Below, in pieces: positions 41,937 to 57,738 of a DNA stretch of 64,000 bases (position 1 is the first letter of the stretch; each line of letters begins with the position of its first letter). Under the pieces are notes generated by a model. That model saw nothing but the letters and a program-made list of their open reading frames with translations, had not been told where the DNA came from and ran no database searches. The translations under genes and the position numbers were made by a program. The stretch lies in contig JAFSPF010000079.1 in the NCBI GenBank assembly GCA_017443065.1, positions 11,326-75,325 on the forward strand, read 5' to 3'. This DNA is from Lachnospiraceae bacterium (GTDB lineage Bacteria; Bacillota; Clostridia; Lachnospirales; Lachnospiraceae).

Positions 41937-42659
41937 TTATTCGGCGTCTGCTGCCGGTGCTTCTTCTTTGGGTTCTTCTGTTACTGCTTCTTCTGCTGCA
42001 GGTGCTTCTGCTGCTTCTTCAGCCGGAGCCGCTTCCTCTGCAGGCGCTGCTGCCTCTTCCGCTGCAGGTGCCGCTTCCTCTGCCGGGGCTGCCGCTTCTT
42101 CTGCTGCAGGTGCTGCTTCCTCTGCCGGGGCTGCCGCTTCGGCTGCCTCTTCCTTCGGTGCAGGTTCTGCGCCGCTCTCCTTCTGCTCCGCGATCTGCTT
42201 CACGACGCGCGCGAAGTTTGCGATCGGGGACTGCATGGAGCCGAGCAGCTTGGAAAGCAGTTCGTCCCTCGACGGGATCAGTGCGATTTCCTGAAGCGCC
42301 GCGGCGTCATAGAACTTGCCTTCGATCACGCCGCCCTTGAGTTCCAGGTCTTTGTTTGTCTTTGCAAATTTGCAAAGCACGCGTGCCGGTGCGGCAGGAT
42401 CTTCCGCGGAGACCGCGAGTGCGGACGGGCCGTTCAGCAGGTCCTGCAGCTGTGCATAATCCGTGCCCTCAAACGCGCGGGTCATCATCGTGTTCTTGTA
42501 AATCTTGTAGAACACGTTGTCCGCACGAAGCTGACGGCGCAGCTGCGTATCCTGTGCAACGGTCAGACCTCTCGCATCCACCAGAACCACCGCCTGCGCG
42601 TCCTTGACGTGCTCTGCGATTTCCTGCACGATCGGCTGTTTTAACTCAACCTTTGCCAT
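41937..42659 (-). CDS. rplJ: 50S ribosomal protein L10 with an atypical ~75-aa Ala/Glu/Pro repeat tail
   Basis: MAKVELKQPIVQEIAEHVKDAQAVVLVDARGLTVAQDTQLR... is a canonical L10. After the L12-binding helix it continues as EPAPKEEAAEAAAPAEEAAPAAEEAAAPAEE... I chose the ATG at 42659. Confidence 0.93.
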   Translation of the reverse strand: MAKVELKQPIVQEIAEHVKDAQAVVLVDARGLTVAQDTQLRRQLRADNVFYKIYKNTMMTRAFEGTDYAQLQDLLNGPSALAVSAEDPAAPARVLCKFAKTNKDLELKGGVIEGKFYDAAALQEIALIPSRDELLSKLLGSMQSPIANFARVVKQIAEQKESGAEPAPKEEAAEAAAPAEEAAPAAEEAAAPAEEAAPAAEEAAAPAEEAAPAEEAAEAPAAEEAVTEEPKEEAPAADAE

Positions 42660-42880
42660 GTTCGTTTTCTCTCCTTTCCTGCGCAATGCGCAAAGTCTGT
42701 TTCAGGAGACTGTTTCCTTCATAAAGAAAACGCCCCTGTATGTTCCAAAGACATACGGAGGCTGTTGCATACAAATAAACTGTATTCCCTCACCTCGGCT
42801 GGCGCGGCTCTCACCGTCTTACGACTTTCGTCACCTGCTGTCTTCGGCATGGTCTTTTCAGACCGCTATTTACATTACCA
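42660..42880 (-). promoter_or_regulatory. long rplJ 5' leader (candidate L10-leader autoregulatory RNA)
   Basis: About 200 nt of ORF-free, structured-looking sequence sits upstream of rplJ. The call comes from position and from known L10(L12)4 autoregulation in Firmicutes. I did not verify the motif. Confidence 0.35.
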
Positions 42881-42953
42881 CTTTTCCGTCCGCTTTGTCA
42901 AGCGCACTTCTAAATCGATGTTTATATTTATTAACTATTTATTAAATTTATAT

Positions 42954-42982
42954 TGACAGTTTGGCGTTGTTGTGTTACAGTA
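42954..42982 (+). promoter_or_regulatory. candidate sigma-70 promoter at the left edge of the AT-rich block
   Basis: TTGACA, a 17-nt spacer, then TACAGT. A tandem 10-bp direct repeat TATTTATTAA (42926-42935 and 42937-42946) precedes it. Confidence 0.45.
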
Positions 42983-43072
42983 TGCACATCGGATTTCACT
43001 GTCATGTGTGACTTTCCTTGCGCATGCCCCCGGGAATACCAATCAGTAAAACCATTTGACAGGAGACTTATA

Positions 43073-43723
43073 TTGCATAACGAAAAATACAGTGTCGAAG
43101 AGAACAACAGAATCAAACAGAACCATGCAGAAGCTTCACTCTTTTTGAAAGAGTTGCAACACCTCCTGGATGGTAAGCAAGCCGCATTAAGCCGACCGCT
43201 CAGAGTCGGAACGATGCCAAATGCTCTTGTTGCATGTGGCGCAGAAAAAGACAGGACAGTAACAATCACAAAAAGGGTGATTGACAAAGCAATGCGGCAG
43301 GAAATCCGGGACCAATATGGCAAGCTGAGGGGACGAACCGGACACGGCATAACAAAGGAGCAACTGGTTGATGCTTTGATGGGAATAAAAACTCCGGTGA
43401 TAGTATTCCGTGGCAAGAGGGAAGATTCAATGCTGATTATCACTTCCGTTAAAGACAATATGGGGCGTAATCTGGCCGTGGCATTGGACCTCCGGCGAGA
43501 GGAAGGGTTCGAGGTTGTAAGCAGCATTCGAAGTATTCACGGAAGAGAAAACGTGGAACGCTTTATCAGGGACAGTATAGGCGAAGGAAGACTACTTGCG
43601 ATAAATATAGACAAAACTGACGATATGCTTCGTTCCATAGAGAAAAGGTATCTCAAGGAGAACACATACGCCAGCTTTGACGACAGTATAGCATATTCCA
43701 TGAATAGCGTCAAATATCACTGA
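43073..43723 (+). CDS. hypothetical protein resembling the short N-terminal module of phage/conjugative-element polyvalent proteins (MuF-C / PBECR-like)
   Basis: TTG start with AGGAGA six nt upstream. The pattern PLRVGTMPNALVACGAEKDRTVTI..HGITKEQLVDAL..PVIVFRG..DSMLIITSVKD..GRNLAVAL recalls that module. The family assignment is from memory only. Confidence 0.55.
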   Translation: MHNEKYSVEENNRIKQNHAEASLFLKELQHLLDGKQAALSRPLRVGTMPNALVACGAEKDRTVTITKRVIDKAMRQEIRDQYGKLRGRTGHGITKEQLVDALMGIKTPVIVFRGKREDSMLIITSVKDNMGRNLAVALDLRREEGFEVVSSIRSIHGRENVERFIRDSIGEGRLLAINIDKTDDMLRSIEKRYLKENTYASFDDSIAYSMNSVKYH

Positions 43724-44106: not shown

Positions 44107-45294
44107 TCAGTTTAGCATGGTGGCAAACGCAAACTCCATTGTGCCATCATCCTTATCAAGTAAAGAAAAAAAGAACAGACCGTCATATTCAGACAGCATA
44201 GTGACTTGTCTAAAACCCTTGTCACTATTCTCGAAAAGAAGTACATCCGGCAGATCAGGCAGATCATATACGGGTTTTTCAAAATCTTTTAAGGCCTCCC
44301 TCGGATAATAAACATTCACTTTAACCCCATTAATGATATTTTGATATTCATCCGCAATACTGATACGATATCGCGGAGAAAGTGTTTCATACATCTTCCC
44401 CGCACTGTCAGGTCCGACTAATAATCCCGGACTTTCATATATTGTTTCAACAGTAACCGCCTCTGCCGGCAGGTCTGTCAGCGAATAGAAAAAACCGTCG
44501 TATGATCCTAACCCATAATCGTGCAAGTGCCTTCCGTCTGTGTCATCCCTCAGGGAATAATCCATATATAAGCCAATTGGCGTCACATTGTTATACTCCA
44601 GCGAACCGCTCAGTTCCCTGTGATATCTTTGCCGGTCATCCTCGGAACGGAAAGAAAGACAGTGGATTTTCGAATGCGTGCCCTTTAACAATGACTTCCA
44701 AAAAACATCCTCTGTGACATTCTCAAACGAACAATTGATAAAATCCATTTTAATAATAAACCGTTCTTCCGCCAAAACAGTTTCTAAGTTTTGTCCGTCA
44801 TAAAAAGTCGTGAAGTGCATATCATAGATCTCCGACCCATAATCGCCCCTTGGTACGCCGTACCCTCCGTTGAAAGAAAACGCCTTCGGCGCCCCATACG
44901 TTTCAATTGCTTTCGCCTCAATGGCAGCCAGTATTTCCTCTCTCTGATAGTTATCTCTTGTTATTTCCGAAATTTCATCACTGTCCCCGTTTGTAAATAC
45001 ACCGAACTCCTTCTCATCCGTTCGCATCCGAACCGTAAGACGCGACGTTTTCTTTCTCGGGGAGATGACAGGAACGGGTGATATGATATACTCAAACTCC
45101 ACATCAACCGCCTCTGCCTGAACGCCATACTTTTCAAGTATATATCGTTCTGCATTCTTCATGGCCTGTTCCTGCCAGCGGCTTTCCTCCTCCAGACGTT
45201 TATTACTCTCTCCGTCCAGGGTGACAAGCCGTATGAAAAGCGCTGCCAATAATATGTAAAACACAACAACCGCAACTTTTCCCTTTGTATTCAT
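44107..45294 (-). CDS. membrane-anchored hypothetical protein, island family A (copy 1)
   Basis: N-terminal anchor MNTKGKVAVVVFYILLAALFIRLVTL, then KNAERYILEKYGVQ. Paralogous to the disrupted gene at 54789..55893. ATG at 45294 with GGAGTAAG upstream. Confidence 0.8.
   Translation of the reverse strand: MNTKGKVAVVVFYILLAALFIRLVTLDGESNKRLEEESRWQEQAMKNAERYILEKYGVQAEAVDVEFEYIISPVPVISPRKKTSRLTVRMRTDEKEFGVFTNGDSDEISEITRDNYQREEILAAIEAKAIETYGAPKAFSFNGGYGVPRGDYGSEIYDMHFTTFYDGQNLETVLAEERFIIKMDFINCSFENVTEDVFWKSLLKGTHSKIHCLSFRSEDDRQRYHRELSGSLEYNNVTPIGLYMDYSLRDDTDGRHLHDYGLGSYDGFFYSLTDLPAEAVTVETIYESPGLLVGPDSAGKMYETLSPRYRISIADEYQNIINGVKVNVYYPREALKDFEKPVYDLPDLPDVLLFENSDKGFRQVTMLSEYDGLFFFSLLDKDDGTMEFAFATMLN
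45207..45294. repeat. ~88-bp near-identical repeat encoding the shared N-terminal membrane anchor (copy 1)
   Basis: Nearly identical to 49372..49461, although the two genes diverge completely after the anchor. Confidence 0.85.
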
Positions 45295-45415
45295 TAAAAC
45301 TCTTACTCCGTTTCCCGGTCGTTCTGCCCGCCGGTTATCCTTCGTGAAACAATGATCTCCGCGATATGTGACAGGAAAACCCATAATACCGGCATTGCCG
45401 TCGGTATAAATGCTT

Positions 45416-46699
45416 TTACTCCGGACCCGCCTCCAGCGGCGTATAGCCGGTCTTCTTTATCAACTCCTGTCCCTGCTCCGAACAGATCCACGCTACCAGT
45501 TCCTGTGTTTCCTTCGATGCGTTACTTCTGGTGACCGCATAGAAATTTCCGCAGATCGGATAGGTTCCGTTTGCAATGTTTTCTTCTGTAGCGCTTACCC
45601 CTTCGAGTGGAAGTATCTTTATGCCGGAACCGTCCACCATCCTTGTCAGATAATAACGGAAGGAATAGCCGATCGCATTTCTATAGTTTCTGTAGTTTGC
45701 AACAGAAGATACCATCCCGCCCATACTGGCTGATACATTTTCGGTCTCCGTCACTCCCATTAACGGCGTATCGCCCATCACACGTTTGATTGCGGTCTGC
45801 GAGCCGCTGCCTTCATCACGTTGAAAAGCGCGTATTCTCCCCATACCGCTAACACCCAACTCTGACCAGCTTTTTATCTTGCCGGAATATATCCCGCGCA
45901 CCTGTTCCACCGTGATGTTTTCGATCGGATTGGACGCGTTAACAAAGAATACAAACGCCTCGCTTCCGATCGGTGTAAAGATGAGTTCAATCCCTTTTTC
46001 TTTTGCATACTCCATCTGCTTTTCGGATGCTTCTGCCACAAAGATGACATCCACATCCCCGTTTACGATCCGCCGATAAGCCTCTGTTGTTGTGCTGCAT
46101 GTCACCAGTTTTCCCCTGTCCGGCTGCGTTTCCTCCGGATACAGAACCTCCTCCGGATACAGCGCCTGCGCAAAGGATGCATAGACCGGATAAAGTGCCG
46201 TTGCGCCGTCCATGGACGGATAATTATCCGGAAAAGCAATCGTCGGCGCATCATCAAGCACCGCCAGCACGTTGTTCTCCGAATACGGGCGATATGAGGA
46301 AAGCGATTCTCCTTCTGACACAGTGGCGAGACTGTCGTTATAAATCACCCGGGCACCAAATGCCAGCGCCGTCACACACCACACCGCAAACAACACGGCC
46401 AATGCCAGCCGGAGCTTCTTCTTTTTGAAACCGCCGTAGATCAGGAATAACAACGCCACAATCCCCAGCCACACAACTGCGTGCGCCAGGAGGTTTGCAA
46501 GGACGACGTTATAGCGCGCACCGAATCCGCCACCCCCTACGATAAACAGGAGCATCAGACCAATGATACCTGCAACCGCAAACACTATGACGGTCAACAT
46601 CATCTTTCCGATGATCCTCATTTTTTTATTGTCCGAGCACGCGAATACGATTCCAAGAAGAATAAATGTAACTACAAAGATTCCTATAATAAGACCCAT
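45416..46699 (-). CDS. PstS-like (PBP_like_2) substrate-binding domain fused to N-terminal TM helices
   Basis: Four predicted N-terminal TM helices. Then SMDGATALYPVY, TPIGSEAFVFFVN, VRGIYSGKIKSWSELG and QRDEGSGSQ, which are typical of phosphate-binding-protein-fold domains. Confidence 0.75.
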   Translation of the reverse strand: MGLIIGIFVVTFILLGIVFACSDNKKMRIIGKMMLTVIVFAVAGIIGLMLLFIVGGGGFGARYNVVLANLLAHAVVWLGIVALLFLIYGGFKKKKLRLALAVLFAVWCVTALAFGARVIYNDSLATVSEGESLSSYRPYSENNVLAVLDDAPTIAFPDNYPSMDGATALYPVYASFAQALYPEEVLYPEETQPDRGKLVTCSTTTEAYRRIVNGDVDVIFVAEASEKQMEYAKEKGIELIFTPIGSEAFVFFVNASNPIENITVEQVRGIYSGKIKSWSELGVSGMGRIRAFQRDEGSGSQTAIKRVMGDTPLMGVTETENVSASMGGMVSSVANYRNYRNAIGYSFRYYLTRMVDGSGIKILPLEGVSATEENIANGTYPICGNFYAVTRSNASKETQELVAWICSEQGQELIKKTGYTPLEAGPE

Positions 46700-46785
46700 G
46701 CTTTACTACCTTTTTATTTTTACTATACCGTCCATCATCCTGATGAAGATCTCAAGAAGCATTCCTGCATCATCATTCGGCGAAC

Positions 46786-47538
46786 TCAAAATATCTCCTT
46801 TACCGCCTCCGTGAATTCACTTTCGCTCATGCCGATCTGCCCCTTCTCATAAGGGATGATCAGCTCAAACATGTCTGCTTTGATCGATAAGCTTGTGTCT
46901 CCCTTCTCACCCTTATCATACATCCACTCCTGAACTTCTTTCAGACGATCTTCCTCCGTCAGGAATAATACCAGATTACCCTCAAGCATTTCCATGTTTC
47001 TAAGCGCTTCTTTTAAACCATCATAGATCCGAGTTGCATCTGTCGGTTGGTCAGGGACAAAGAATACTTCTATGCGATACTTTTGATTACCCTTGCGTCT
47101 TCTTACATAATCCTCTATGCTGATCTCTGTATCCTTACACCCTTGATCTATTGACCCGATACGAAACGCATACACATCAAACAGCCCCGGGATCTTGTTC
47201 ATGTTAGACGATACACGTGCAGCTATTTTATTACATACGATACGCGAAATGTACTCATCACTTCCCCTGCTTCCGTCTGCTGTAATTGTCGCATTAAAAA
47301 GAAATTCCGGATGCGACTTTGCGTATGCCTTGGCATAGAACCAGTCCTCCCCTATATTTTGGGATCTGGCATTGACTACCATAAATTCCTCATTGTACTT
47401 TTCCTCAAGGTATTTTATGGTCATTTCCTCCCGTTTCTGTTCCGACCGCACGACAGGACCGCAGGCTGCAAGCATGGCAGATAAAGCGGTTGCCATAAGC
47501 ATTATTCCTATTCTTGTTTTACGTACATGCGGATTCAT
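46786..47538 (-). CDS. lipoprotein, island family C
   Basis: Lipobox LAACG. Post-anchor helix TIKYLEEKYNEEF, related to the motif in families A and D. Confidence 0.75.
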   Translation of the reverse strand: MNPHVRKTRIGIMLMATALSAMLAACGPVVRSEQKREEMTIKYLEEKYNEEFMVVNARSQNIGEDWFYAKAYAKSHPEFLFNATITADGSRGSDEYISRIVCNKIAARVSSNMNKIPGLFDVYAFRIGSIDQGCKDTEISIEDYVRRRKGNQKYRIEVFFVPDQPTDATRIYDGLKEALRNMEMLEGNLVLFLTEEDRLKEVQEWMYDKGEKGDTSLSIKADMFELIIPYEKGQIGMSESEFTEAVKEIF

Positions 47539-47586
47539 GTATGCTTTCCTCTTTTCACCTTCATGCAGTTTGTTTTAAACCACTCT

Positions 47587-48528
47587 TTATTCTTTTGCAT
47601 AATCGTCAATCCATATCATCCCAAAAGCAGCGTATGGATTGTTGTTGCGGATGATTTCTGCATTACCTTCCTCTATGTCAATCCTACATAACGTATATGT
47701 ATTAGCACTTGTCATTCCACGACCAAGCTCTTGATAAATAAGCTTCTTGTCATCCGGTGACAACGCATGAGCATGATCGACATATCCGCTTTTACAGATG
47801 AGACGTTCCGTGTTTTTTTCTATATCATAATAATACCATGCGACGCCGTCCACATTATATAGCACATCCCCCTTGGACGTAACCTCAAATTCAAAACACA
47901 TATCATTCTGACTCTGAAACAATTCCTTTATTTCACCAGTGTTAATATCCAAAATCGCAAAAGCTCCATGATCCGTTGAAAGATACATTCGGGTCTCATC
48001 GAGCCATCGATAAGGTGGATTTGGCGCATAAAAACCACGGGGAAATGTATCAACCAAAGAAAGTCCATCCTCTTCGTTATACAACCACAGATTCATACAA
48101 TAATAAAAACTGATACCTCCTCCCGGGCGGTATTCCACCCTCCACGGTGCTTCAAAATCCTGTTCTATTCCGCGCTCTTCACATGCTCTTACCAGTTCTT
48201 CTCGCGAAAGAAGATACTTCACTTCGTCTGTCATTAGATTATACTCTACAAGGCACCATTCTTCGTCGTCCACTGTCGCAGCTATCGCGTCATGCGTATC
48301 ATTTATATCTATTGAAACCAATAAAAAATCCTCATTGACCATTAACTCCGCCTCTGCTTCCAATAAAGGATTCGACATGATCAAATGACTTTTTTCTATG
48401 CCTGTTATTTCAGAAATGAATATCTTATCTCCACTCATCTTACCGTCCATGTTTTTAGCGCATCCCACAAGCAGCCCCAAAAGCCCTCCTATAATTATCA
48501 ACTTCTTAAATGCTGCTTTCATGCCCAT
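47587..48528 (-). CDS. lipoprotein with a TolB-like beta-propeller signature, island family B (copy 1)
   Basis: Lipobox LLVGCA. Motifs WRVEYRPGGGISFYYC and LSPDDKKLIY. Paralogue of 52454..53395. AGGAGGG RBS. Confidence 0.8.
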   Translation of the reverse strand: MGMKAAFKKLIIIGGLLGLLVGCAKNMDGKMSGDKIFISEITGIEKSHLIMSNPLLEAEAELMVNEDFLLVSIDINDTHDAIAATVDDEEWCLVEYNLMTDEVKYLLSREELVRACEERGIEQDFEAPWRVEYRPGGGISFYYCMNLWLYNEEDGLSLVDTFPRGFYAPNPPYRWLDETRMYLSTDHGAFAILDINTGEIKELFQSQNDMCFEFEVTSKGDVLYNVDGVAWYYYDIEKNTERLICKSGYVDHAHALSPDDKKLIYQELGRGMTSANTYTLCRIDIEEGNAEIIRNNNPYAAFGMIWIDDYAKE

Positions 48529-48723
48529 TCGCCCTCCTATACTATTCTTTTATCCGGCAAACAAAAAAGAACTATGGCATTGCAAAAGACATTGTGTTAA
48601 TGATTCAATATCCCGCATTGAAACCGTTTGTATATCCTTTACCAATTATACCCGTTAGTATGAAATTCTCTTATTCTATAATCAAATGATGTGTCCGCAT
48701 ATACGTCCATCGAATATCCTGCG

Positions 48724-49461
48724 CTAATACCCTCTTCTTCCATCTTGCCTTTGATATTTTTTTTTCAATTCGCGATAGTCCTTTTCTGTCATGTCGGGAG
48801 CAACACATTTGATCCATAGAGTATGTCCCGCACCTTTTTTTTCATTCAAAAACATCTCAGCCGTCAGCCCTTCCGCAAAGTCTTTTCCTTGCGGTCTGAC
48901 CCTTGACAGAATAACTTCTTCGCACTCGGGGGCTATCTCGCGCAGTTTTTCCTTCATGATACGTTCATAATCATCCTTGATGAACACGATATAGAAATTA
49001 TCTTCCGCTTTATACGGATAGTGACGAATGTCTTCCGCATACACGTAAACTCTGTACGTCTTCCAATAGAATTTGTCCGTTGACTCATACTCCTCCCGCG
49101 GCAAAAACTTGAACACCGCATAGTTATCGTCTTTATTCTGAACAGCTCCGCCGACAATCCTCAAATCGTATGACGGATACTTTTCCTTCAGATACTCTTG
49201 TGCATAATCTAATTGATACAGATAATGGCTTTCGTAATATATATTCGCTTTCTCTGTATGAAAAAAGTCCTTCAATATTTCCATATGTTCCTGTTTGAGT
49301 TCACGGTCGTATTCTCTTGGGTGTTCCATTGCGATAAATGCAGGCTCGGATTCTCCTTCGCCGGCACCGCTACTCTCGCCGTTCAAGGTGACAAGCCGTA
49401 TGAAAAGCGCTCCCAATAATATGTAAAACACAACAACGGCAACTTTTCCCTTTGTACTCAT
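48724..49461 (-). CDS. membrane-anchored hypothetical protein, island family D (copy 1); candidate immunity protein
   Basis: Anchor MSTKGKVAVVVFYILLGALFIRLVTL, shared with family A. AQEYLKEKYPSYDLRIVGG matches AKEYLNRKYPSYDFIILDG of 51488..52282. Lies immediately downstream of the WXG-like ORF. Confidence 0.8.
   Translation of the reverse strand: MSTKGKVAVVVFYILLGALFIRLVTLNGESSGAGEGESEPAFIAMEHPREYDRELKQEHMEILKDFFHTEKANIYYESHYLYQLDYAQEYLKEKYPSYDLRIVGGAVQNKDDNYAVFKFLPREEYESTDKFYWKTYRVYVYAEDIRHYPYKAEDNFYIVFIKDDYERIMKEKLREIAPECEEVILSRVRPQGKDFAEGLTAEMFLNEKKGAGHTLWIKCVAPDMTEKDYRELKKKYQRQDGRRGY
49372..49461. repeat. ~88-bp near-identical repeat encoding the shared N-terminal membrane anchor (copy 2)
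   Basis: Matches 45207..45294. Confidence 0.85.
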
Positions 49462-49492
49462 CTCACACACCCTTTTGTCCGTTAAACCGATC

Positions 49493-49735
49493 TTACATGA
49501 TAAGGTTATTTCTGAGCAGTACTGACGCCTGCTCATTTAGCGCTTCTCCCTCATCATAGATTCCTGCCATCTCCCGCAACTTCACCGGATATTCCTTCAG
49601 ATTGCTTAATGCCGTCTGCAACTGTTCTGTTTCCGCTTTTTCATATGATGACTGATAGGCTTCATGGGCATTCCCGATCCAGTACCCGACGGTTTTTCGC
49701 ACTGTTTCATAGAGCATTTCAAAGACTCCGGACAT
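49493..49735 (-). CDS. 80-aa helical protein with W-x-G and YxxxE motifs (WXG100-like / Lap-like candidate partner)
   Basis: The sequence ..TVGYWIGNAHEAYQSSYEK..LSNL..AGIYDEGEALNEQ.. is predicted all-helical. It begins 22 nt after the lipase stop. The RBS is weak. The W-x-G sits unusually near the N-terminus (residues 19-21). Confidence 0.55.
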   Translation of the reverse strand: MSGVFEMLYETVRKTVGYWIGNAHEAYQSSYEKAETEQLQTALSNLKEYPVKLREMAGIYDEGEALNEQASVLLRNNLIM

Positions 49736-49757
49736 TCGGCTTATCTCAGGGATTCAC

Positions 49758-51464
49758 TCAGACCCTTCGACCACATGCTGCGCTCTCCGATAACTGATAT
49801 GCGGCACAGATTTGTTGTATCGCAGAATCCATACTTTTACAGCATTGTGACTGTTGTGTGATCTGCTCACAGATCGCAAGAACTGTGCTCTTTACGCTCG
49901 CAAGCTCTCCGCGCAGGGAATGCGCGATACTCTCGGCTCTTGCGCTACAGGATAACAGTTGTGTTGACTGCTGGGTCATCATGGATGCGGCGGTTTGCAG
50001 TTTATCGGGGACGACAAAAAAAGCTCTGTCCGATCCGCCTGGGGTGCTCTGATTTTCCTCTTTTGGCACGTAGTCATCTATAAAATATGGCGTCTTGTCT
50101 CTACGAAATTCATTGATTTCAATTTCATCCATCTTTTCTCCGGTGCGGATAAGAAGTATATATAGTCTTCTACACTGTTCATCCGTCAAATCTATACCGC
50201 AATCGCGGAAGATCTCCTTGATGTTCAACATGGACCGGCCGAATACAGCCCCACGAGCGCCTTCGTATTTCAGAAATTCGTCCAGTAGTGGCGAATCCAA
50301 CAAAAGTGCTTTTGTAAAAATCAGCCCCTTTTTGTTCTCGTCTGTTATATCGCCCAATAACACGTCGGCAATCGAAAAAAACACATCCGGGTACCTTTTC
50401 TGATACTCCCTCGCATATGCCAATAAATACGCAACATGATCCACGTTTTCATTTGAGGTAAGTAGTGAAATAATCTCTGATTTCCCAAGTTCTCCAGTTC
50501 TGGCTCCCTGCACAATCTCTCCCACGAGTGCAAGTGCTTCATTTCTGTTTGTCTCCGACATTGACCTTAAATAACTGTTCAGAAATAAATCAAACTCCTT
50601 CATCATAGGATCTCTTTCACCGGGGATCATTGAATAAGATCCGTTTTCATCAAAGTGCAGATAGGCGTTCGGACAATGATTCTCCACAAATCCGCCGCTG
50701 CCGATGTTCGCGGCCTTGAAATAATAATCCCTTCCCACCTGATTCAGCAGCGCATTCGCGAAATCGCTTTCAGCATTCAGATTGACTATCTTGTCATGAG
50801 CCACTCCTACCTCATATGCATATGTTTCCATAAATTCATCCGAAAAACCCTGACCATCCATAGAGATGCATCTGTCAATCGCTCTTGGCGCCCCCTCTGC
50901 CGCATCCAGAATTGTTACGTACTTTGCCTTATTTCCTCCCTTGGAGTGACCGATGACCGTAATATAATCATCGCTACTTAACAGCCCGTTTCCATTCTCT
51001 CCAAAAAGGCTTTCATACCATTCCTTTGCCCGTTCCTGCGCAGGACTCGAAATCCCGTCAGCGGTCTGCTGGTTTCCTCCAATTGCAAAGTTGTCGGCCC
51101 ACTCTGTTTTCGTTGATCCGCGAAACGCGATCACGTTTTCCTGTGTCTCCGGATTTCTGAACAAAACCGCCGTGCCCTCACGACTGCGAGTCCCAACGGT
51201 CTCCTGATGCACATTGCGGATTTCCATGTTCATCAGCACCGGATCCTGTTCAATCGCCTCAATAATCTGCTTCCACTCTTCTTTCGTCGTGTGGACGTAT
51301 TCATCATTTGATGCAGGAACGTTATCAAAATCTATTGTGCTTATTAAATCACCTACCGTATGACCCTCAAAAAAAGTTATATCACGCATGCCCGCATCTC
51401 TTTCGTGCGGCATATAAGTAAGGTTTTCCAACAAAACCAACTGTTCATAGCTAAGCGTGTCCAT
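49758..51464 (-). CDS. Mbeg1-like/DUF2974 alpha/beta-hydrolase (lipase-type) with a C-terminal WXG100/LXG-like helical hairpin; candidate secreted toxin
   Basis: VIAFRGSTKTEW..ITVIGHSKGGNKAKY..SMDGQGF..ENHCPNAY gives a GxSxG nucleophile elbow with Asp and His candidates. No signal peptide. The last ~90 aa, FFVVPDKLQTAASMMTQQSTQLL...SLRGELAS..., resemble the start of an ESAT-6/LXG domain, with L-x-G about 36 residues in. ATG at 51464 is preceded by AAGGGAGAGG. Confidence 0.8.
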   Translation of the reverse strand: MDTLSYEQLVLLENLTYMPHERDAGMRDITFFEGHTVGDLISTIDFDNVPASNDEYVHTTKEEWKQIIEAIEQDPVLMNMEIRNVHQETVGTRSREGTAVLFRNPETQENVIAFRGSTKTEWADNFAIGGNQQTADGISSPAQERAKEWYESLFGENGNGLLSSDDYITVIGHSKGGNKAKYVTILDAAEGAPRAIDRCISMDGQGFSDEFMETYAYEVGVAHDKIVNLNAESDFANALLNQVGRDYYFKAANIGSGGFVENHCPNAYLHFDENGSYSMIPGERDPMMKEFDLFLNSYLRSMSETNRNEALALVGEIVQGARTGELGKSEIISLLTSNENVDHVAYLLAYAREYQKRYPDVFFSIADVLLGDITDENKKGLIFTKALLLDSPLLDEFLKYEGARGAVFGRSMLNIKEIFRDCGIDLTDEQCRRLYILLIRTGEKMDEIEINEFRRDKTPYFIDDYVPKEENQSTPGGSDRAFFVVPDKLQTAASMMTQQSTQLLSCSARAESIAHSLRGELASVKSTVLAICEQITQQSQCCKSMDSAIQQICAAYQLSESAACGRRV

Positions 51465-51487
51465 GCCTCTCCCTTTCGCAAATATGC

Positions 51488-52282
51488 TCACTTACATAAA
51501 AAGCTATACGTAAACACTCTATTATTAAAACTCTCATCTTCAAATATATCTATCATAAATCCTCCGTGTATTTTTTTTTCAAATATAAGTTGCTCTATCC
51601 TTTTTGTCGCCCCTTCGTAGTCCTCTCCCTCTATGTCCTCTGCACATAGCGAAAAAAACACCATGGTGCTAATTTTCATCGAAAGAATATCCTCTACTGT
51701 AACACTCTCCCCATATTGTTCTCCCAGCGCATTACTAAAGCGGATTGTCACGTCCCTAATCCGAATTCCTTCTTCCAGCAGGAGCGATTCAAAAAAGTCT
51801 TCAAAATCATCCTTAACAATTTCGCAGAAAAAAGTATCCTCAATATTGACTACCTTTGCACTATCCTCTACATCGACAAATACGTCAACTATAAATAACT
51901 CATTGTATGTCAACGCATCATCAAACTTGTCTCTTTCATAAAAAAAGAACTTCGCCATTCTCCTGTCTTTTGTTATGTTCTCCCCATCCAAGATTATGAA
52001 ATCATACGACGGATACTTCCTGTTTAGGTACTCTTTGGCTGTTCTGGAATGATTCAGAAACGTTTTCTGATACCCAAACAATTCACCTTCTTCTATCCTC
52101 TCCTCTCCAAGAAAAACTCTTTTCAATAACGCCTTCTCTTCCTCTGTCATTTCGACGCGTTCTTCTTCCGCCGGTGAATCCCCGGACATATTCGTATTCC
52201 CCGACGCGCATCCCGTCAGGAGTAAAACAACAATAAGACTGCATATATACCGAAGCAGCCTGCTTGAACTATTTTTCCTCAT
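51488..52282 (-). CDS. lipoprotein, island family D (copy 2); candidate immunity protein
   Basis: Lipobox LLTGCA. Paralogue of 48724..49461. Its stop is 23 nt upstream of the lipase start. Confidence 0.8.
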   Translation of the reverse strand: MRKNSSSRLLRYICSLIVVLLLTGCASGNTNMSGDSPAEEERVEMTEEEKALLKRVFLGEERIEEGELFGYQKTFLNHSRTAKEYLNRKYPSYDFIILDGENITKDRRMAKFFFYERDKFDDALTYNELFIVDVFVDVEDSAKVVNIEDTFFCEIVKDDFEDFFESLLLEEGIRIRDVTIRFSNALGEQYGESVTVEDILSMKISTMVFFSLCAEDIEGEDYEGATKRIEQLIFEKKIHGGFMIDIFEDESFNNRVFTYSFLCK

Positions 52283-52373
52283 TTCGCATACCCTTTTGTC
52301 TGTGAAACGATCTTAGATAAGTTTACAGAGACTCCTTTCCCCGTTTCTCGGGATCTGTTATACACGATTACCG

Positions 52374-52458
52374 CTCTTTATTCTTTTGCATAATCGTAAA
52401 TCAATATCATCCCAAAAGCAACGTATGGATTGTTGTTGCGGATAATTTCTGCATTACC
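52374..52458 (-). pseudogene. 85-bp remnant of a family-B gene 3' end
   Basis: Near-identical to 47583..47667, the last 26 codons plus stop of the B1 gene. It would read GNAEIIRNNNPYVAFGMILIYDYAKE*, but it is out of frame with B2. The remnant supplies B2's stop codon. Confidence 0.8.
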
Positions 52459-53395
52459 ATATTATCGCATACCGCTCTTCATCTCCCCACTTTTTAATCA
52501 CCGATGTTTTACCAGCACTAATATCCAGCAAAATCAGTCTTGAAATACCGGAGCCGGTGATACCATGATTTTCTTCCTGAAAGAGAAGATATTTCCCATC
52601 CGGCGAAATAGCGTAAACATTTGTAACAAACCCGGCTTCACACAGCAATCTGCTTGTCTCCGTTTCCGTGTCAAGGATATACCATCCCGTTTTGTCGTCA
52701 TGATAAATCAAGCTTCCATCTGAACCAATGACGTATTCAAAACTATGATTGGAATCTGTGCGCAGATATCTTTCTTCCTCACCTGTATATACATTAATCT
52801 TTTTTAACCAACCTTTGTACGCTGACACATAAACAGTATCGCTATCAATCCACCGGTATGCCACTCCACCGCCACGGTACTCCCGGGGAAACCCTTCTAA
52901 TAATACACATTCTCCATCGCTATATAGCCAAAGCCTGCTGCAATAATAAAAACTAATACCGCCACCCGGATGATATGCCACACGCCAAGCCGGACTATGA
53001 TTCTTCTCTACCCCTTCCTCCTCCAAATATCTTTCCATCTCTTCTACGGTGACTAATATCGTTTCTTCACCTGTGGATAAATCGTACTCCACAAGTAATA
53101 CACCGTTTCCACTCGTTGTCGCGGCAATTTTCGACTTGCTTTCGTCCAGTCCAAGCGATAAATACACGCGTCCCTCTGCCTGGAGCACGGTTTCATCCTT
53201 CTCCCCATTCATATTCCTTCGTATGATCTTTCCATTTCCGCCATCTCCCGGAGTTGAAACATAAAAATCCGGTTCATCCATTTTCTTTATCTTCCGGCCA
53301 AAGAATAACAGTGCCAAAATCGCACCGCCTGCAACTAAAAACAATACTATCGCAATAATCATTCTTTTATTTACGACGCCATTCTGCATTGCCAT
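52454..53395 (-). CDS. membrane-anchored TolB-like beta-propeller protein, island family B (copy 2)
   Basis: N-terminal TM helix. Motifs WRVAYHPGGGISFYYC and ISPDGKYLLF. Paralogue of 47587..48528. Confidence 0.8.
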   Translation of the reverse strand: MAMQNGVVNKRMIIAIVLFLVAGGAILALLFFGRKIKKMDEPDFYVSTPGDGGNGKIIRRNMNGEKDETVLQAEGRVYLSLGLDESKSKIAATTSGNGVLLVEYDLSTGEETILVTVEEMERYLEEEGVEKNHSPAWRVAYHPGGGISFYYCSRLWLYSDGECVLLEGFPREYRGGGVAYRWIDSDTVYVSAYKGWLKKINVYTGEEERYLRTDSNHSFEYVIGSDGSLIYHDDKTGWYILDTETETSRLLCEAGFVTNVYAISPDGKYLLFQEENHGITGSGISRLILLDISAGKTSVIKKWGDEERYAIIW

Positions 53396-53577
53396 TTACC
53401 TGCCTCTTCTTTTATTCTCCGGATATTTTACCACACTCGCCTCCTGTTCCGCCATCCTTGGCGGAACCTAAAGACAGTCGGCCCGGTAGTATCGCACATC
53501 CGTGTGCAGATACCACGGCTTGATATACTATGGGTATACGACAGCACATAAAAGTATTGCTCCTCGTATGCAATCGC

Positions 53578-53606
53578 TTGAGAATTTAGCATAATCATGC
53601 TAAAAT
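53578..53606 (+). promoter_or_regulatory. promoter with embedded operator palindrome for the toxin-antitoxin pair
   Basis: TTGAGA, a 17-nt spacer, then TAAAAT. A perfect 8-bp inverted repeat TTTAGCAT-aatc-ATGCTAAA (53585-53604) spans the spacer and the -10 element. Confidence 0.6.
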
Positions 53607-53630
53607 ACCGGAGAAGGAGAGGGATGAAGC

Positions 53631-53912
53631 ATGAAAGGAACCATCAGACCTGTATCAGATTTAAGAAACAACTTTGCGGATATTTCAAAAGTGGTGCATG
53701 AAACGGGACAGCCGGTGTTTCTGACGAAAAACGGGTATGGCGATATGGTTGTCATGTCAATGGAAGCCTACGAGAATATGGAATTTGAGAGTGAAGTGTA
53801 CCACAAACTGAAAGAAGCGGAGCGGGAAGCGGAACTGACAAATCAGCGTTTTTCTTCAAAGGAAGTACTTGTCGCGATCAGGCAGGCGATCAGGGTGCCC
53901 GTACATGGGTAA
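53631..53912 (+). CDS. type II antitoxin, Phd/YefM family
   Basis: The sequence IRPVSDLRNNFADISKVVHETGQPVFLTKNGYGDMVVMSMEAYE is a typical Phd/YefM N-terminal domain. AAGGAGAGGG RBS. Confidence 0.88.
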   Translation: MKGTIRPVSDLRNNFADISKVVHETGQPVFLTKNGYGDMVVMSMEAYENMEFESEVYHKLKEAEREAELTNQRFSSKEVLVAIRQAIRVPVHG

Positions 53913-54222
53913 ATACAAGGTGGAATACCTGCCGCTTGCCATGAAAGATATGGTTGATATCGCTGCCTATATCAGCGGAGAGCTCTGCAACCCGGACGCG
54001 GCACAAGCACTCGCGGAACAATTTGTTTCGTGCGGAGACGAACTCGCAAAGTATCCGTACCGTAACGGTGTCTATGTGCCGGCAAAGAAGTTGAAGCATG
54101 AGTATCGGAGAGTTCTTGTCGGGCATTACGGAATGTACTATTGGGTTGACGAAGAAGCACGGAGCGTGACGATTGCGCGTGTCATCTATCAGCGGCGGGA
54201 TATGGACAGACTTCTTGATTGA
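53905..54222 (+). CDS. type II toxin, RelE/ParE family
   Basis: An 8-nt overlap (ATGGGTAA) with the antitoxin gene. The pattern YKVEYLPLAMKDMVDIAAYI...YRRVLVGHYGMYYWVDEEARSVTIARVIYQRRD fits ParE/RelE. Confidence 0.85.
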   Translation: MGKYKVEYLPLAMKDMVDIAAYISGELCNPDAAQALAEQFVSCGDELAKYPYRNGVYVPAKKLKHEYRRVLVGHYGMYYWVDEEARSVTIARVIYQRRDMDRLLD

Positions 54223-54283
54223 CGCGCGGTATTGTGTTTTGAGGTTGTAGTAAAGACTCCTTCAATCCAAAGGGGAAGACGGA

Positions 54284-54631
54284 TTGCAAAATAAGACACT
54301 ATCAAAACCGATTACCATAACAATCACATTGACGTTGGCGGCTTCAGTCCTTACGTCAGTCATTGTGTACCTGACAAATCAGAATCTGATTGATAGCGGG
54401 CATTACACAAATGCGGATGGTTTTTGGGAAATGGCACAAATTGCCTTTTGGATTCAGACAGCGGTAGTTTGCGCAATCAGCATACCGTTGGCTGTTTGGA
54501 TGGCGCCGAAAGAAAAAATGCTGCTTGCAGTAATCCTGGCGGTGGTATTGCCGGTAATCATAGGAGTGGTTGCTGCTATTGTAGCGTATATTGCAGTCTT
54601 TTTTGTCTTGCTCAAGATTTACAATGCATAA
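54284..54631 (+). CDS. small integral membrane protein (3-4 TM), function unknown
   Basis: TTG start with AGGGGAAG upstream. The sequence is hydrophobic throughout. Confidence 0.55.
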   Translation: MQNKTLSKPITITITLTLAASVLTSVIVYLTNQNLIDSGHYTNADGFWEMAQIAFWIQTAVVCAISIPLAVWMAPKEKMLLAVILAVVLPVIIGVVAAIVAYIAVFFVLLKIYNA

Positions 54632-54648
54632 CGGTAGGAGGATGATAA

Positions 54649-54738
54649 ATGGAGTTCTATATTGTACTGGCGGTGTTCGGTGCGATTATGGGAATACTGT
54701 TTTTCCTTTTGGCACTGTCTAAATATGGAGTCCGCTGA
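54649..54738 (+). CDS. 29-aa hydrophobic peptide ORF (absent from the ORF track)
   Basis: TAGGAGGATGATAA precedes the ATG at good RBS spacing. It encodes MEFYIVLAVFGAIMGILFFLLALSKYGVR, a single TM helix with a basic tail. Confidence 0.5.
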   Translation: MEFYIVLAVFGAIMGILFFLLALSKYGVR

Positions 54739-54788
54739 TTTCAACCGGAATACCAGGGGAAGGTTTTGCTGCCTGTGGGGAGAATGAC

Positions 54789-55893
54789 ATGAACTGTTTC
54801 GTGAAGAAATCCGGAAAACGCATTTACAGAACGCTGCGCCGTGTGACAGTGATGGTCATGGCGGTATTGGTGTGCCTGACCGCCTGTGAATCGGCTAAGG
54901 AACGTGAAGAACGTATCGAAAATGAAAACCAATGGCAGGAACAGGGCATGAAGAACGCGGAGCGATATGTCCTTGAAAAGTACGGCATTCAGGCAAAGGC
55001 ACTGGATGTGGCATTTGATACGGCATATCCGACCGGCGCGGTTTTGGCATCTCCCCGGAACACAATGTCTATGACAGTCAGGATGCGCGCGGGGGACAAA
55101 GAATTTGGTGTATACATCAACGGGGACAGTGAAGAGTTTGCGCACTATACGAGGGACAATTATCAAAGAGAAGAGATACTGGCAGCGATCAAAGCCAGAG
55201 CGTCTGAAACTTACGGTGAACCGCTGGTGTTTTCTTTCCGCGTGGGGCAAAACCTGCCGAGAGGAGACTACGGGCCGGAAATCTATGATACGCACTTCCG
55301 GACGTTTTATGACGGGAATCTATTGTCTTTCCTTTCGCTCCGAAGAAGACCGGCAGACATATCACACAAAAATGTCGAATTCGCAAAAATACACAGAGGT
55401 GGAACCGATCGGATTATATATGGATTATTATCTGAGAGACGGAGAGAATAAAGAACGCGTAAAATGCTACTATACCTTGTGTAAGCATGACGGCTTTTTC
55501 TATACCCTTCGGAATATGCCGGAAAACGCGGTGATGATTGAAACGGCAGATGAGCATCCGGGCGTATTCGCGGGGAAGAACAAAAACGGGAAGAGCTACT
55601 ATACCTGTTCTCCCACATACCGTGTCCGGCTCAGGGATGAATACAAAGATGCGTTTGACAGTATTTGGAGGTACAGTGTAACCGTTTATTATCCCGGGAG
55701 CGGCATCACCGTCGGGAAAGATTACGAGGGCTTTAAGTATTCGGTTGAAATGTATTATGACAGGTACAACCGGTTGATTGATTTCAATTCGCAGACGTTG
55801 CATGATGCCTATGACGGTAAGTTTCATTTGTACATAGACACCTCAGACACTGAGGTGGATGCGATCGAATTTGCGATTGCCACGCAGCCTTAA
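54789..55893 (+). pseudogene. disrupted family-A lipoprotein gene (copy 2): internal deletion plus frameshift
   Basis: ORFs 54789..55451 and 55105..55893 together align with the protein of 44107..45294. About 40 codons are missing after HFRTFYDG, and the frame shifts near 55315-55325. The N-terminus carries the lipobox LTAC. Confidence 0.8.
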
Positions 55894-55916: not shown

Positions 55917-57623
55917 CTACCCGATCAGAACGGTCTTCCCCTCAAAGGCAAATCCGTACTTGCGGATGCGGTCTTCCGGGATCCCCTTTGCGACAAGAGA
56001 CGCGGCATATTGTTTTTCTTCGATCTGTGCATGCGCAGCGGCGACGGTGTCTTCGAGCGTCTTTTCGCCCTTCTTTTCGTTCTTTACTTTGAATTCAATG
56101 ATGATGGCGTCGTTTTCCGCGGGGTTCCTTGGTTCCAGTACAAGGTCATAGCGCCCGAAGCCGGATTCCCGGTTACTTGTGATAAGATAGCGGTCTTTCA
56201 ATTCCACCATCAGTCCCAGTGCAAAGCCATGGTAAAAGCGTTCCGGTTCACTCCTTTCGGACGGTTCGTTTCCGGTGTCAAAGGTTGAAAACGTCACCAG
56301 CGCCACGTCGTTCATGTACGCATTCATTTCTTCCTCTTCGCCCTTCAGGAGCGCCCGGATGAAGCGGTTGTAATTGGCATGTCCGTCCGCAAACCAGTCA
56401 CGGACCAGACCTTCGAACATATTCCGCACTTCCAGATTGGTCAGCGTAAGCCGGCACTGATTTGAATCCATCGTTTCCGCTTTCAGATACCCGCTTGCCA
56501 GCAGTATGCTCCAGATCGCTTTTTCCGAAGCGTTCATTCTCTTGAAAACAATCTCTTCATCGATCTCCGATACGATACTCCCGCCGCGCAGCAGTATCTC
56601 AAAATCCTGTTTGAGCTCTGTGGAGCCTTCCCTGATCAGACGTCCCGCAAGGGCATTGGAGGAGGTGTTGGCCCAATAGGGTTTCAGCTTTCCGTTATTG
56701 TCCAGGTAATTTGTGATGGACCAGGGATTGTAGATGCTGTTGACACTGCCGAAGGTAAAACCGTCATACCACTCCTTTACCGAATCCTTATCAGACAGCC
56801 CCTTCTCGTCCATGGCGGCAAAAACTTCTTCCTCCGTAAATCCGAAGCAGGTTTCATATTTATCAGACATGACGGATACGACTTTCAGGTTGTTCAGATC
56901 AGAAAAAAGAGATTCCTTTGAAATCCTTGTCACGCCCGTAATAACTGCGCGCTCCAGATGCGGATTGTCTTTGAACGTCGCGTTGAACATGCCGCGCAAA
57001 AACTGCGCGGCCTCATCCCAGAAACCGTGGAGCCACGCTTCCTGCATCGGGGAATCGTATTCGTCCAACAGCACAATGACTTTTTTACCGTGATATTTGG
57101 AAAGATATCCGCACAGTCTGTGGATGGCATCGCTGCCGTAAGCGTTTTCTTCGTCCGTCGCCATACGCTCAAAATGCGCCTTCAACATGCGATCGAAGTG
57201 CTCTTTTTCATCATCGCCGAGAATATCCCCTTCTGTCAGATAACGGTACCGTCCGTACAGCAGGGACATTTTGGAAAACAATTCGGTTTTCATGGTGTCA
57301 TAATCCGCCGGCTTGACGGAGGAGAATGTCAGATTGATCACGGGATATGTCCCCTGGATTGCGCGGTAGGTCTCATCCTCCCAGATGGAAAGCCCTTCGA
57401 ACAGGTCGGCGCGGTTTGCATAGGCTGTGGAAAAAAAGCATTCCAGCATGCTCATATTCAGCGTTTTTCCGAAGCGGCGCGGACGGGTGATCAGGGTGAC
57501 CTTGTCTCTCCCCTTCCACCATTCTTTGATAAAGGATGTTTTGTCCACGTAAAAACAGTCCTTTTCCCGGATATCCGTAAAATACTGTGCACCGATCGAA
57601 ACGGTTCTGCCTTTTTGCTCCAT
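55917..57623 (-). CDS. AAA-ATPase-like (DUF1703) plus PD-(D/E)XK nuclease-family protein
   Basis: FYVDKTSFIKEWW...ITRPRRFGKTLNMSMLECFF is characteristic of this family. C-terminal GRYDLVLEP...IIIEFK nuclease core. The start is chosen at MEQKGRT; the track start is 57737. Confidence 0.8.
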   Translation of the reverse strand: MEQKGRTVSIGAQYFTDIREKDCFYVDKTSFIKEWWKGRDKVTLITRPRRFGKTLNMSMLECFFSTAYANRADLFEGLSIWEDETYRAIQGTYPVINLTFSSVKPADYDTMKTELFSKMSLLYGRYRYLTEGDILGDDEKEHFDRMLKAHFERMATDEENAYGSDAIHRLCGYLSKYHGKKVIVLLDEYDSPMQEAWLHGFWDEAAQFLRGMFNATFKDNPHLERAVITGVTRISKESLFSDLNNLKVVSVMSDKYETCFGFTEEEVFAAMDEKGLSDKDSVKEWYDGFTFGSVNSIYNPWSITNYLDNNGKLKPYWANTSSNALAGRLIREGSTELKQDFEILLRGGSIVSEIDEEIVFKRMNASEKAIWSILLASGYLKAETMDSNQCRLTLTNLEVRNMFEGLVRDWFADGHANYNRFIRALLKGEEEEMNAYMNDVALVTFSTFDTGNEPSERSEPERFYHGFALGLMVELKDRYLITSNRESGFGRYDLVLEPRNPAENDAIIIEFKVKNEKKGEKTLEDTVAAAHAQIEEKQYAASLVAKGIPEDRIRKYGFAFEGKTVLIG

Positions 57624-57738
57624 GGAATCCGCCTTTCCTGCCCTTCCCATAGCAACTGAGACACCTTCATGATACCACAGGGAAGGCGGATTTGTCACAC
57701 GGGCACAAAAAGGACGGTTCTTTTTGTCCTTTTGCACG

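Follow-up and report, generated by a model that had tools for sequence, protein, structure and literature searches.

A 64,000-nucleotide (nt) stretch of the genome of a Lachnospiraceae bacterium (assembly GCA_017443065.1, 144 contigs, 94% complete; contig JAFSPF010000079.1, positions 11,326-75,325 of the forward strand), referred to here as the window, contains a block of genes for membrane-anchored proteins arranged around an Mbeg1-like alpha/beta hydrolase, a candidate lipase toxin of a type VII secretion system (T7SS). The block lies in an island of low G+C content (GC) at window 42.9-57.7 kb, with rplJ at one border and an amino-acid ABC transporter at the other. We compared it with 88 congeneric species, with 200 other genomes of the same family (G labels) and with homologue loci and contigs opened individually (L labels; L024 and L027 are metagenome contigs). 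Because its GC is 43-47% against ~58% in the flanks, and because its core DNA was not found in the other 87 species of the genus, the island is foreign and was probably acquired horizontally. Every copy of the four anchored families in this genome, termed A to D, sits within the island, and neither an integrase nor any further gene for mobility was noticed there. The minus strand carries, in order, B2, D2, the hydrolase, a small WXG-like open reading frame (ORF), D1, B1, C, a PstS-like gene and A1, and the plus strand carries a Phd/ParE pair, a gene for a membrane protein of 115 amino acids (aa) and a disrupted A2:

51488-52282, minus strand: D2, a lipoprotein (lipobox LTGC) with a stop that adjoins or overlaps the start of the hydrolase; its candidate cognate immunity protein
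49758-51491, minus strand: Mbeg1-like alpha/beta hydrolase (PF11187), 577 aa from a GTG start, with the triad Ser183-Asp212-His272
49493-49735, minus strand: WXG100-like helical protein of 80 aa (TIGR03930); candidate secretion partner of the hydrolase
48724-49461, minus strand: D1, signal-anchored, cut short at the C-terminus where 1 nt is inserted in an A-run
46786-47538, minus strand: C, a lipoprotein (lipobox LAAC), DUF5037-like in its fold, distant homologue of D and an orphan in the window
47587-48528, minus strand: B1, a lipoprotein (LVGC), probably beta-propeller-like, sitting where L024 has a second hydrolase, an Rhs gene and a B gene
52454-53395, minus strand: B2, signal-anchored paralogue of B1
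44107-45294, minus strand: A1, 395 aa, signal-anchored, from a very rare family, with an anchor cassette common to D1
54789-55893, plus strand: A2, a family-A pseudogene (lipobox LTAC) with a 125-nt deletion between 11-nt direct repeats
45416-46699, minus strand: PstS-like binding domain on about four transmembrane helices, inside the array

A first-pass annotation of this DNA had described seven of these genes as anchored outside the membrane and free of enzymatic motifs, and both descriptions hold: all seven ORFs lie at the positions it gave, each with a lipobox (A2, B1, C and D2) or a hydrophobic, uncleaved signal-anchor helix (A1, B2 and D1), and searches of Pfam and NCBIfam give no enzymatic domain in any of the seven proteins. 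The paralogue pairs that it named are all significant in BLASTP, with A1 and A2 matching in their N-terminal (56% identity, E 1e-56) and C-terminal parts (41%, E 3e-39), B1 and B2 across 304 aa (32%, E 2e-53), and D1 and D2 across 166 aa (28%, E 5e-13).

The hydrolase and its upstream partners

The hydrolase matches the Mbeg1-like family PF11187 (E 2e-10), and the residues G-H-S183-K-G-G, D212 and H272, invariant or nearly so among 15 homologues, supply a lipase-type Ser-Asp-His triad in the N-terminal part of the protein. Its C-terminal ~90 aa appear helical and match the N-terminus of an Rhs toxin encoded in L024 (E 1.9e-8); neither an LXG nor a WXG family of Pfam matched this region. Because the triad is kept and the C-terminal region resembles the start of an Rhs toxin, the protein looks like, and in its sequence fits, a 'reverse' T7SS lipase effector, in which the enzyme is N-terminal and a helical targeting hairpin C-terminal; it would be secreted and toxic as a lipase. 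Full-length homologues number in the hundreds (33-38% identity across ~97% of the length), the named ones coming from Lachnospiraceae, Roseburia and Anaerosporobacter; no sequence relative was found among PDB chains, nor in a scan of genome contigs with the hydrolase protein alone. The reverse-lipase module also includes a small WXG100-like partner gene beside the hydrolase, and such a gene is present: the 80-aa ORF matches TIGR03930 with an E-value of 0.0017, under the curated cut-off, and is 36% identical to a protein of L015 that bears a WXG100 match in Pfam.

A family-D gene lies directly upstream of the hydrolase, separated by a few nt or overlapping it, in all nine gene pairs from the eight loci with full-length homologues that were examined (the window, L015 with two tandem pairs, L016/L017, L018, L019, L020, L021 and L024). 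The D profile matched six of the 200 other genomes of the family, in five of which the match is immediately upstream of a hydrolase match (G112, G192, G104, G148 and G007), the sixth (G129) being a partial match close to a contig end. The four genomes in which the pair is full-length or occupies a long reading frame (G112, G192, G104 and G148) all encode a full-length EssC-type FHA-FtsK ATPase. The D copies are strongly diverged (20-28% identity), and most have a lipobox or an anchor helix. The proposal that the two D genes bracket the hydrolase as its immunity proteins stands for D2 alone. In L024, a second hydrolase (HYD2, 30% identical to that of the window) comes after an 88%-identical orthologue of D1. 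HYD2 is missing from the window, and relative to L024 and L031 the window copy of D1 is frameshifted by its 1-nt insertion; D1 is the partner of this second, lost hydrolase, and the two D genes do not serve one enzyme.

Family C, with ~180 representative relatives, is homologous to family D: in HHalign comparisons the two profiles align with a probability of 96.7% (E 3.7e-10 over 186 columns), or 94.9% (E 4.6e-8) once signal peptides are removed. The predicted structure of C (predicted local distance difference test, pLDDT, 89.6) matches only PDB entry 4GL6, a DUF5037 protein (Foldseek E 4e-10, TM-score 0.65-0.69), whose sequence is also matched by the C profile (E 7e-8). However, the Pfam model of DUF5037 (PF16440) matched only one of 41 C-family members, at E 0.0057 and not above its cut-off. 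Since fold and profile lead to 4GL6 while the Pfam model misses the family, C is a distant relative of DUF5037 rather than a member.

The genes of family C occupy the same position as those of family D. In L028-L030, a C homologue (29% identity) overlaps the start of a 451-aa Mbeg1-like hydrolase by 4 nt and follows two WXG100 genes, and matches to the C profile lie directly upstream of PF11187 hydrolases in G193, G104, G052, G035 and G073; the partner hydrolases of C relatives are Mbeg1-like and 426-491 aa long. A clean example of multi-copy genes beside a toxin candidate is found in G073 (contig C85, 8367-13480), where a run of four C-like genes stands directly upstream of a 761-aa Mbeg1-like hydrolase. 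Orphan copies of C occur in five genomes that lack the hydrolase (G157, G167 with three copies, G173, G168 and G097), and such variable copy number and orphans are the pattern shown by staphylococcal immunity genes (PMC13560087). Hydrolase relatives of 836-839 aa (G050 and G151) have neither a C nor a D neighbour, and the pairing thus does not reach this architecture. As C and D are homologous and both lie directly upstream of Mbeg1-like hydrolases, they plausibly make up, by analogy with known systems, one immunity superfamily directed at 'reverse' lipase toxins of the T7SS. The first-pass annotation had extended such a superfamily to family A on the strength of five helix strings just after the anchor; the strings are found in the sequence as written, but a common origin is borne out for C and D and not for A.

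Strain variants, recombination and families B and A

Three short stretches of DNA are repeated within the island:

45204-45294, minus strand: anchor cassette of 91 nt, 93% identical to 49371-49461; the two copies are the 5' ends of A1 and D1
47579-47667, minus strand: 3' tail of B1, 89 nt, recurring just past B2 at 52370-52458 with 94% identity
49451-49487, minus strand: D1 leader, 81% identical over 37 nt to the D2 leader at 52272-52308

The last of these is the likeness of the D1 and D2 5' untranslated regions noticed earlier, which is real yet short. The repeated cassettes mark recombination between paralogues, and gene content does vary between strains. L024 carries, in order, the WXG-like gene (98% identical), the D1 orthologue, HYD2, a gene for a 1632-aa Rhs protein and an orthologue of B2 (91%), and D1 in the window occupies the place of this D1-HYD2-Rhs-B run. 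In L031, a strain variant with 87-97% nt identity to the window, the order is B2, D2, a hydrolase cut to 158 aa, a third B gene (B3), D1, C and the PstS-like gene; D1 bears a different frameshift and C carries the signal peptide of B1. The toxin can therefore be lost while the anchored genes, D2 included, persist, and orphan copies of C and D exist elsewhere, which is the kind of variation that the first-pass annotation had proposed to look for. In the window, D1, C, B1 and B2 are without a cognate toxin.

Family B had been labelled a TolB-like propeller. Propeller-type profiles do match it, but weakly (Dpp5, E 2e-4; the WD40 protein PkwA, E 3.6e-4; the DPP6 propeller, E ~0.02), and TolB itself reaches an E-value of 0.6. 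Profile comparison finds B unrelated to C and D, and a word-index search, together with searches of the 200 family genomes, of JGI metagenomes and of GTDB genomes, gave no relatives beyond the strain variants of the island. The position of B in L024 suggests a partner of another kind: the B2 orthologue starts 19 nt past the stop of the Rhs gene (L024 2865-7763), whose product has the N-terminus that resembles the C-terminal hairpin of the hydrolase. Immunity genes against Rhs toxins usually stand directly after the Rhs gene. Because the B2 orthologue has this position, family B would point to a different toxin, Rhs rather than lipase. No Pfam family matched the last ~230 aa of the Rhs protein; a possible His...Cys papain-like motif in this C-terminal domain is an impression gained by eye. 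A second toxin candidate, the 741-aa gene that follows the hydrolase in L018, was ruled out: it encodes an acidic surface protein with a Sec signal, unlike the Rhs protein, and its position past a terminator-like stretch also speaks against a toxin role.

Family A has three relatives among 5.8 billion proteins, and its homologues adjoin YcxB/LigT or Phd/ParE genes. Its N-terminal ~95 residues align to C via the KYG helix and a DNY motif, and this domain scores over all 200 column-shuffled controls against the C profile; however, the HHalign probability is only 8%, and against D nothing aligns. A relationship of A to C and D is unproven, and the structure model of A1, built from a three-sequence alignment (pLDDT 38.6), is unusable for fold comparison. 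The disruption of A2 that had been reported is genuine: compared with the intact 409-aa copy in L027 (99% nt identity), it has lost 125 nt between two copies of ATGACGGGAAT, and its reading frame is thereby shifted.

Several other genes lie in or beside the block. Upstream of A2, the Phd/ParE pair, the 115-aa membrane protein and a 29-aa ORF form one run on the plus strand (53631-54738), which is kept as a unit (~99% nt identity) before the intact family-A gene of L027; in one congeneric species (G250), only the Phd/ParE part is found again (94%). Contig C78 of the genome holds a paralogue of the PstS-like gene with 37% identity, and in L031 the first 115 aa of the PstS-like protein are unchanged (100% identity). 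At the left edge of the island, a plus-strand ORF (42953-43723) matches the MuF C-terminal domain of phages (PF18819, E 3e-14) and resembles a stand-alone piece of a polyvalent protein, and at the right edge a minus-strand gene (55917-57737) combines AAA-ATPase_like and PDDEXK_9 domains; copies of it that are ~68% identical occur on contig C47 of the same genome and in related species. Ribosomal protein L10, encoded on the minus strand at 41937-42686, has a long repetitive C-terminal tail rich in Ala, Glu and Pro.

A probable toxin-immunity island and its relation to known T7SS lipases

Two of the opened homologue loci, L015 (Anaerosporobacter faecicola) and L016 (a metagenome-assembled Lachnospiraceae bacterium), are T7SS clusters, each with a 1660-aa FHA-FtsK ATPase and several WXG100 genes; L016 has a YukD-like gene, at the matching position of which L015 has an 82-aa gene, and L015 also encodes a PP2C phosphatase. 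By gene content, with the subtype compared by description only, both resemble the T7SSf-type clusters of Clostridia, whose candidate substrates are LXG proteins, Rhs proteins and reverse lipases (PMC11217815). Similar reverse lipases were noted in other T7SS subtypes as well (PMC11217815), although the Mbeg1-like lipase of L015 and L016 and its C/D partner family are not described there.

In our view the block is probably a toxin-immunity island of the T7SS kind, gained by horizontal transfer and subject to recombination, which retains one intact lipase module (D2, the Mbeg1-like hydrolase and the small WXG-like partner) while its other anchored genes are leftovers or spares. The hydrolase would act as a reverse lipase effector; D2, tethered through its lipid to the outer side of the membrane, would attach to the lipase domain and block it, in the way that TilA acts on TslA and TilM on TslM, a proposal that draws on this analogy and on synteny. 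D1 would be left from the lost second hydrolase, C from a sister family of D that pairs elsewhere with shorter Mbeg1-like hydrolases, and B1 and B2 from a family found next after an Rhs toxin gene in one strain variant. The first-pass annotation had taken the whole array for a candidate immunity repertoire, a proposal that the comparative context sustains for D and C, redirects to an Rhs toxin for B, and leaves unsupported for A.

Several observations weigh against this interpretation. The genome of the window, 94% complete, has no EssC-type ATPase (only an 889-aa FtsK), tblastn with the core genes of L015 and L016 found no match, PF06013 (WXG100) gave none either, and neither YukD nor a clear WXG100 gene was found, so that an intact toxin is left without a visible export route; an EssC-type gene is present in 32 of the 88 congeneric species. 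Two D members (the second D gene of L015, 11723-12448, and that of L021, 10582-11268) carry no signal peptide or anchor and would, from their sequences, be cytoplasmic, and a purely extracytoplasmic immunity role does not fit them. No match to the established immunity families DUF576 (TilA) or DUF1433 (TilM) was found in Pfam searches with families A, B, C and D at E <= 0.1. The link between B and Rhs comes from one metagenome contig of 8 kb, none of the three other contexts of family A has a toxin beside it, and adjacency to the hydrolase, taken alone, fits a helper as well as an immunity protein. With no T7SS found in the genome, the module looks stranded; it may have been acquired recently, may be heading for the decay seen in L031, or may be served by a T7SS in the unassembled fraction.

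The missing secretion system would suit a reading in which the anchored genes merely encode common surface proteins and travel as the cargo of a decaying mobile element, and their clustering with the hydrolase is functionally meaningless. The MuF fragment, the Phd/ParE pair and the PDDEXK/AAA gene that flank the block agree with this, as does the extreme rarity of families A and B, which have no annotated relatives. However, the adjacency of D and C to hydrolases is kept across many genera and in T7SS clusters, where chance is hard to invoke, and we regard the cargo explanation as unlikely. Lif foldases are encoded next to secreted lipases, and D and C might in the same way be helpers of the hydrolase, membrane-anchored steric chaperones or activators rather than inhibitors. 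Tight coupling by overlaps or gaps of a few nt, always upstream and on the same strand, would be expected of such helpers, and the putatively cytoplasmic D members are easier to reconcile with them. Against this stand the orphans and tandem runs of C and D in the five hydrolase-free genomes, the retention of D2 beside a truncated hydrolase in L031 and the high divergence of D copies. The T7SS moreover exports folded substrates. Known reverse lipases have anchored inhibitors (PMC10730906, PMC13560087), and a helper role appears to us quite unlikely. That the entire array, with A, B and the PstS-like gene among its members, is a single repertoire against lipase toxins is very improbable: all of its proteins are anchored outside the membrane, A1 and D1 have a common anchor cassette and the N-terminal domain of A outscores its shuffled controls, but B is unrelated to C and D and follows an Rhs toxin instead of a lipase, A barely aligns with C and not at all with D, and the homologues of A adjoin genes other than toxins.

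As a toxin-immunity island, the locus has close parallels in Staphylococcus aureus, whose T7SS lipase loci contain arrays of non-identical immunity genes with orphan copies and pseudogenes (PMC10730906, PMC13560087), the immunity genes varying in copy number between islands and occurring as orphans in toxin-free genomes (PMC13560087). The hydrolase and its WXG-like partner share, as far as can be predicted, the anatomy of the reverse lipases TslA and TslM (PMC10730906, PMC13560087), and C and D are best seen as analogous, not homologous, to TilA and TilM. Like the window, the TslA/TilA/TlaA1-2 system (PMC10730906) has small helical partner genes beside the toxin, an immunity lipoprotein encoded directly upstream, and variable multi-copy immunity arrays on genomic islands; unlike it, the window has one partner gene instead of two, a lipase that is Mbeg1-like with homologues annotated as Lachnospiraceae, DUF5037-like instead of DUF576 anchored proteins, and no T7SS detected in the genome. 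The TslM/TilM/TlaM system, termed Tsl2 (PMC13560087), likewise pairs a reverse lipase with a single WXG100 partner; its immunity proteins are extracellular and signal-anchored, its arrays include pseudogenes, and where there is no toxin, copies of the immunity gene occur as orphans. However, TilM is a DUF1433 domain of ~125 aa that is encoded divergently, whereas D and C have domains of ~200 aa whose genes run in the same direction as the toxin gene and are coupled to it; between TilM and D or C no relationship in sequence was detected, and 41 C-family members gave no match to DUF576 or DUF1433 at E <= 1.

Relative to these published systems, the lipase family, the immunity fold and the host group are all different, while the kind of system is already known. 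We know of only two characterised families of reverse-orientation T7SS lipases, both staphylococcal and each with its own unrelated immunity family. Together with its relatives, the locus indicates one more family of lipases, the annotated homologues of which are mostly from Lachnospiraceae, and a candidate C/D immunity superfamily that is in no curated model: its nearest solved structure, 4GL6 (the DUF5037 protein RUMGNA_01148 of Ruminococcus gnavus, from structural genomics), has no function or toxin link on record and, despite the match to the fold and profile of C, the Pfam DUF5037 model recognises neither C nor D. We give about an even chance to the broader proposal that C and D are a third, DUF5037-like immunity family matched to a third, Mbeg1-like family of reverse T7SS lipases, and that species without a T7SS keep and shuffle such genes against armed neighbours. 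If this is true, it would give the orphan structure 4GL6 a function. The presence of immunity-type genes with an apparently stranded toxin in a genome without a detectable T7SS bears on how contact-dependent competition shapes accessory genomes.

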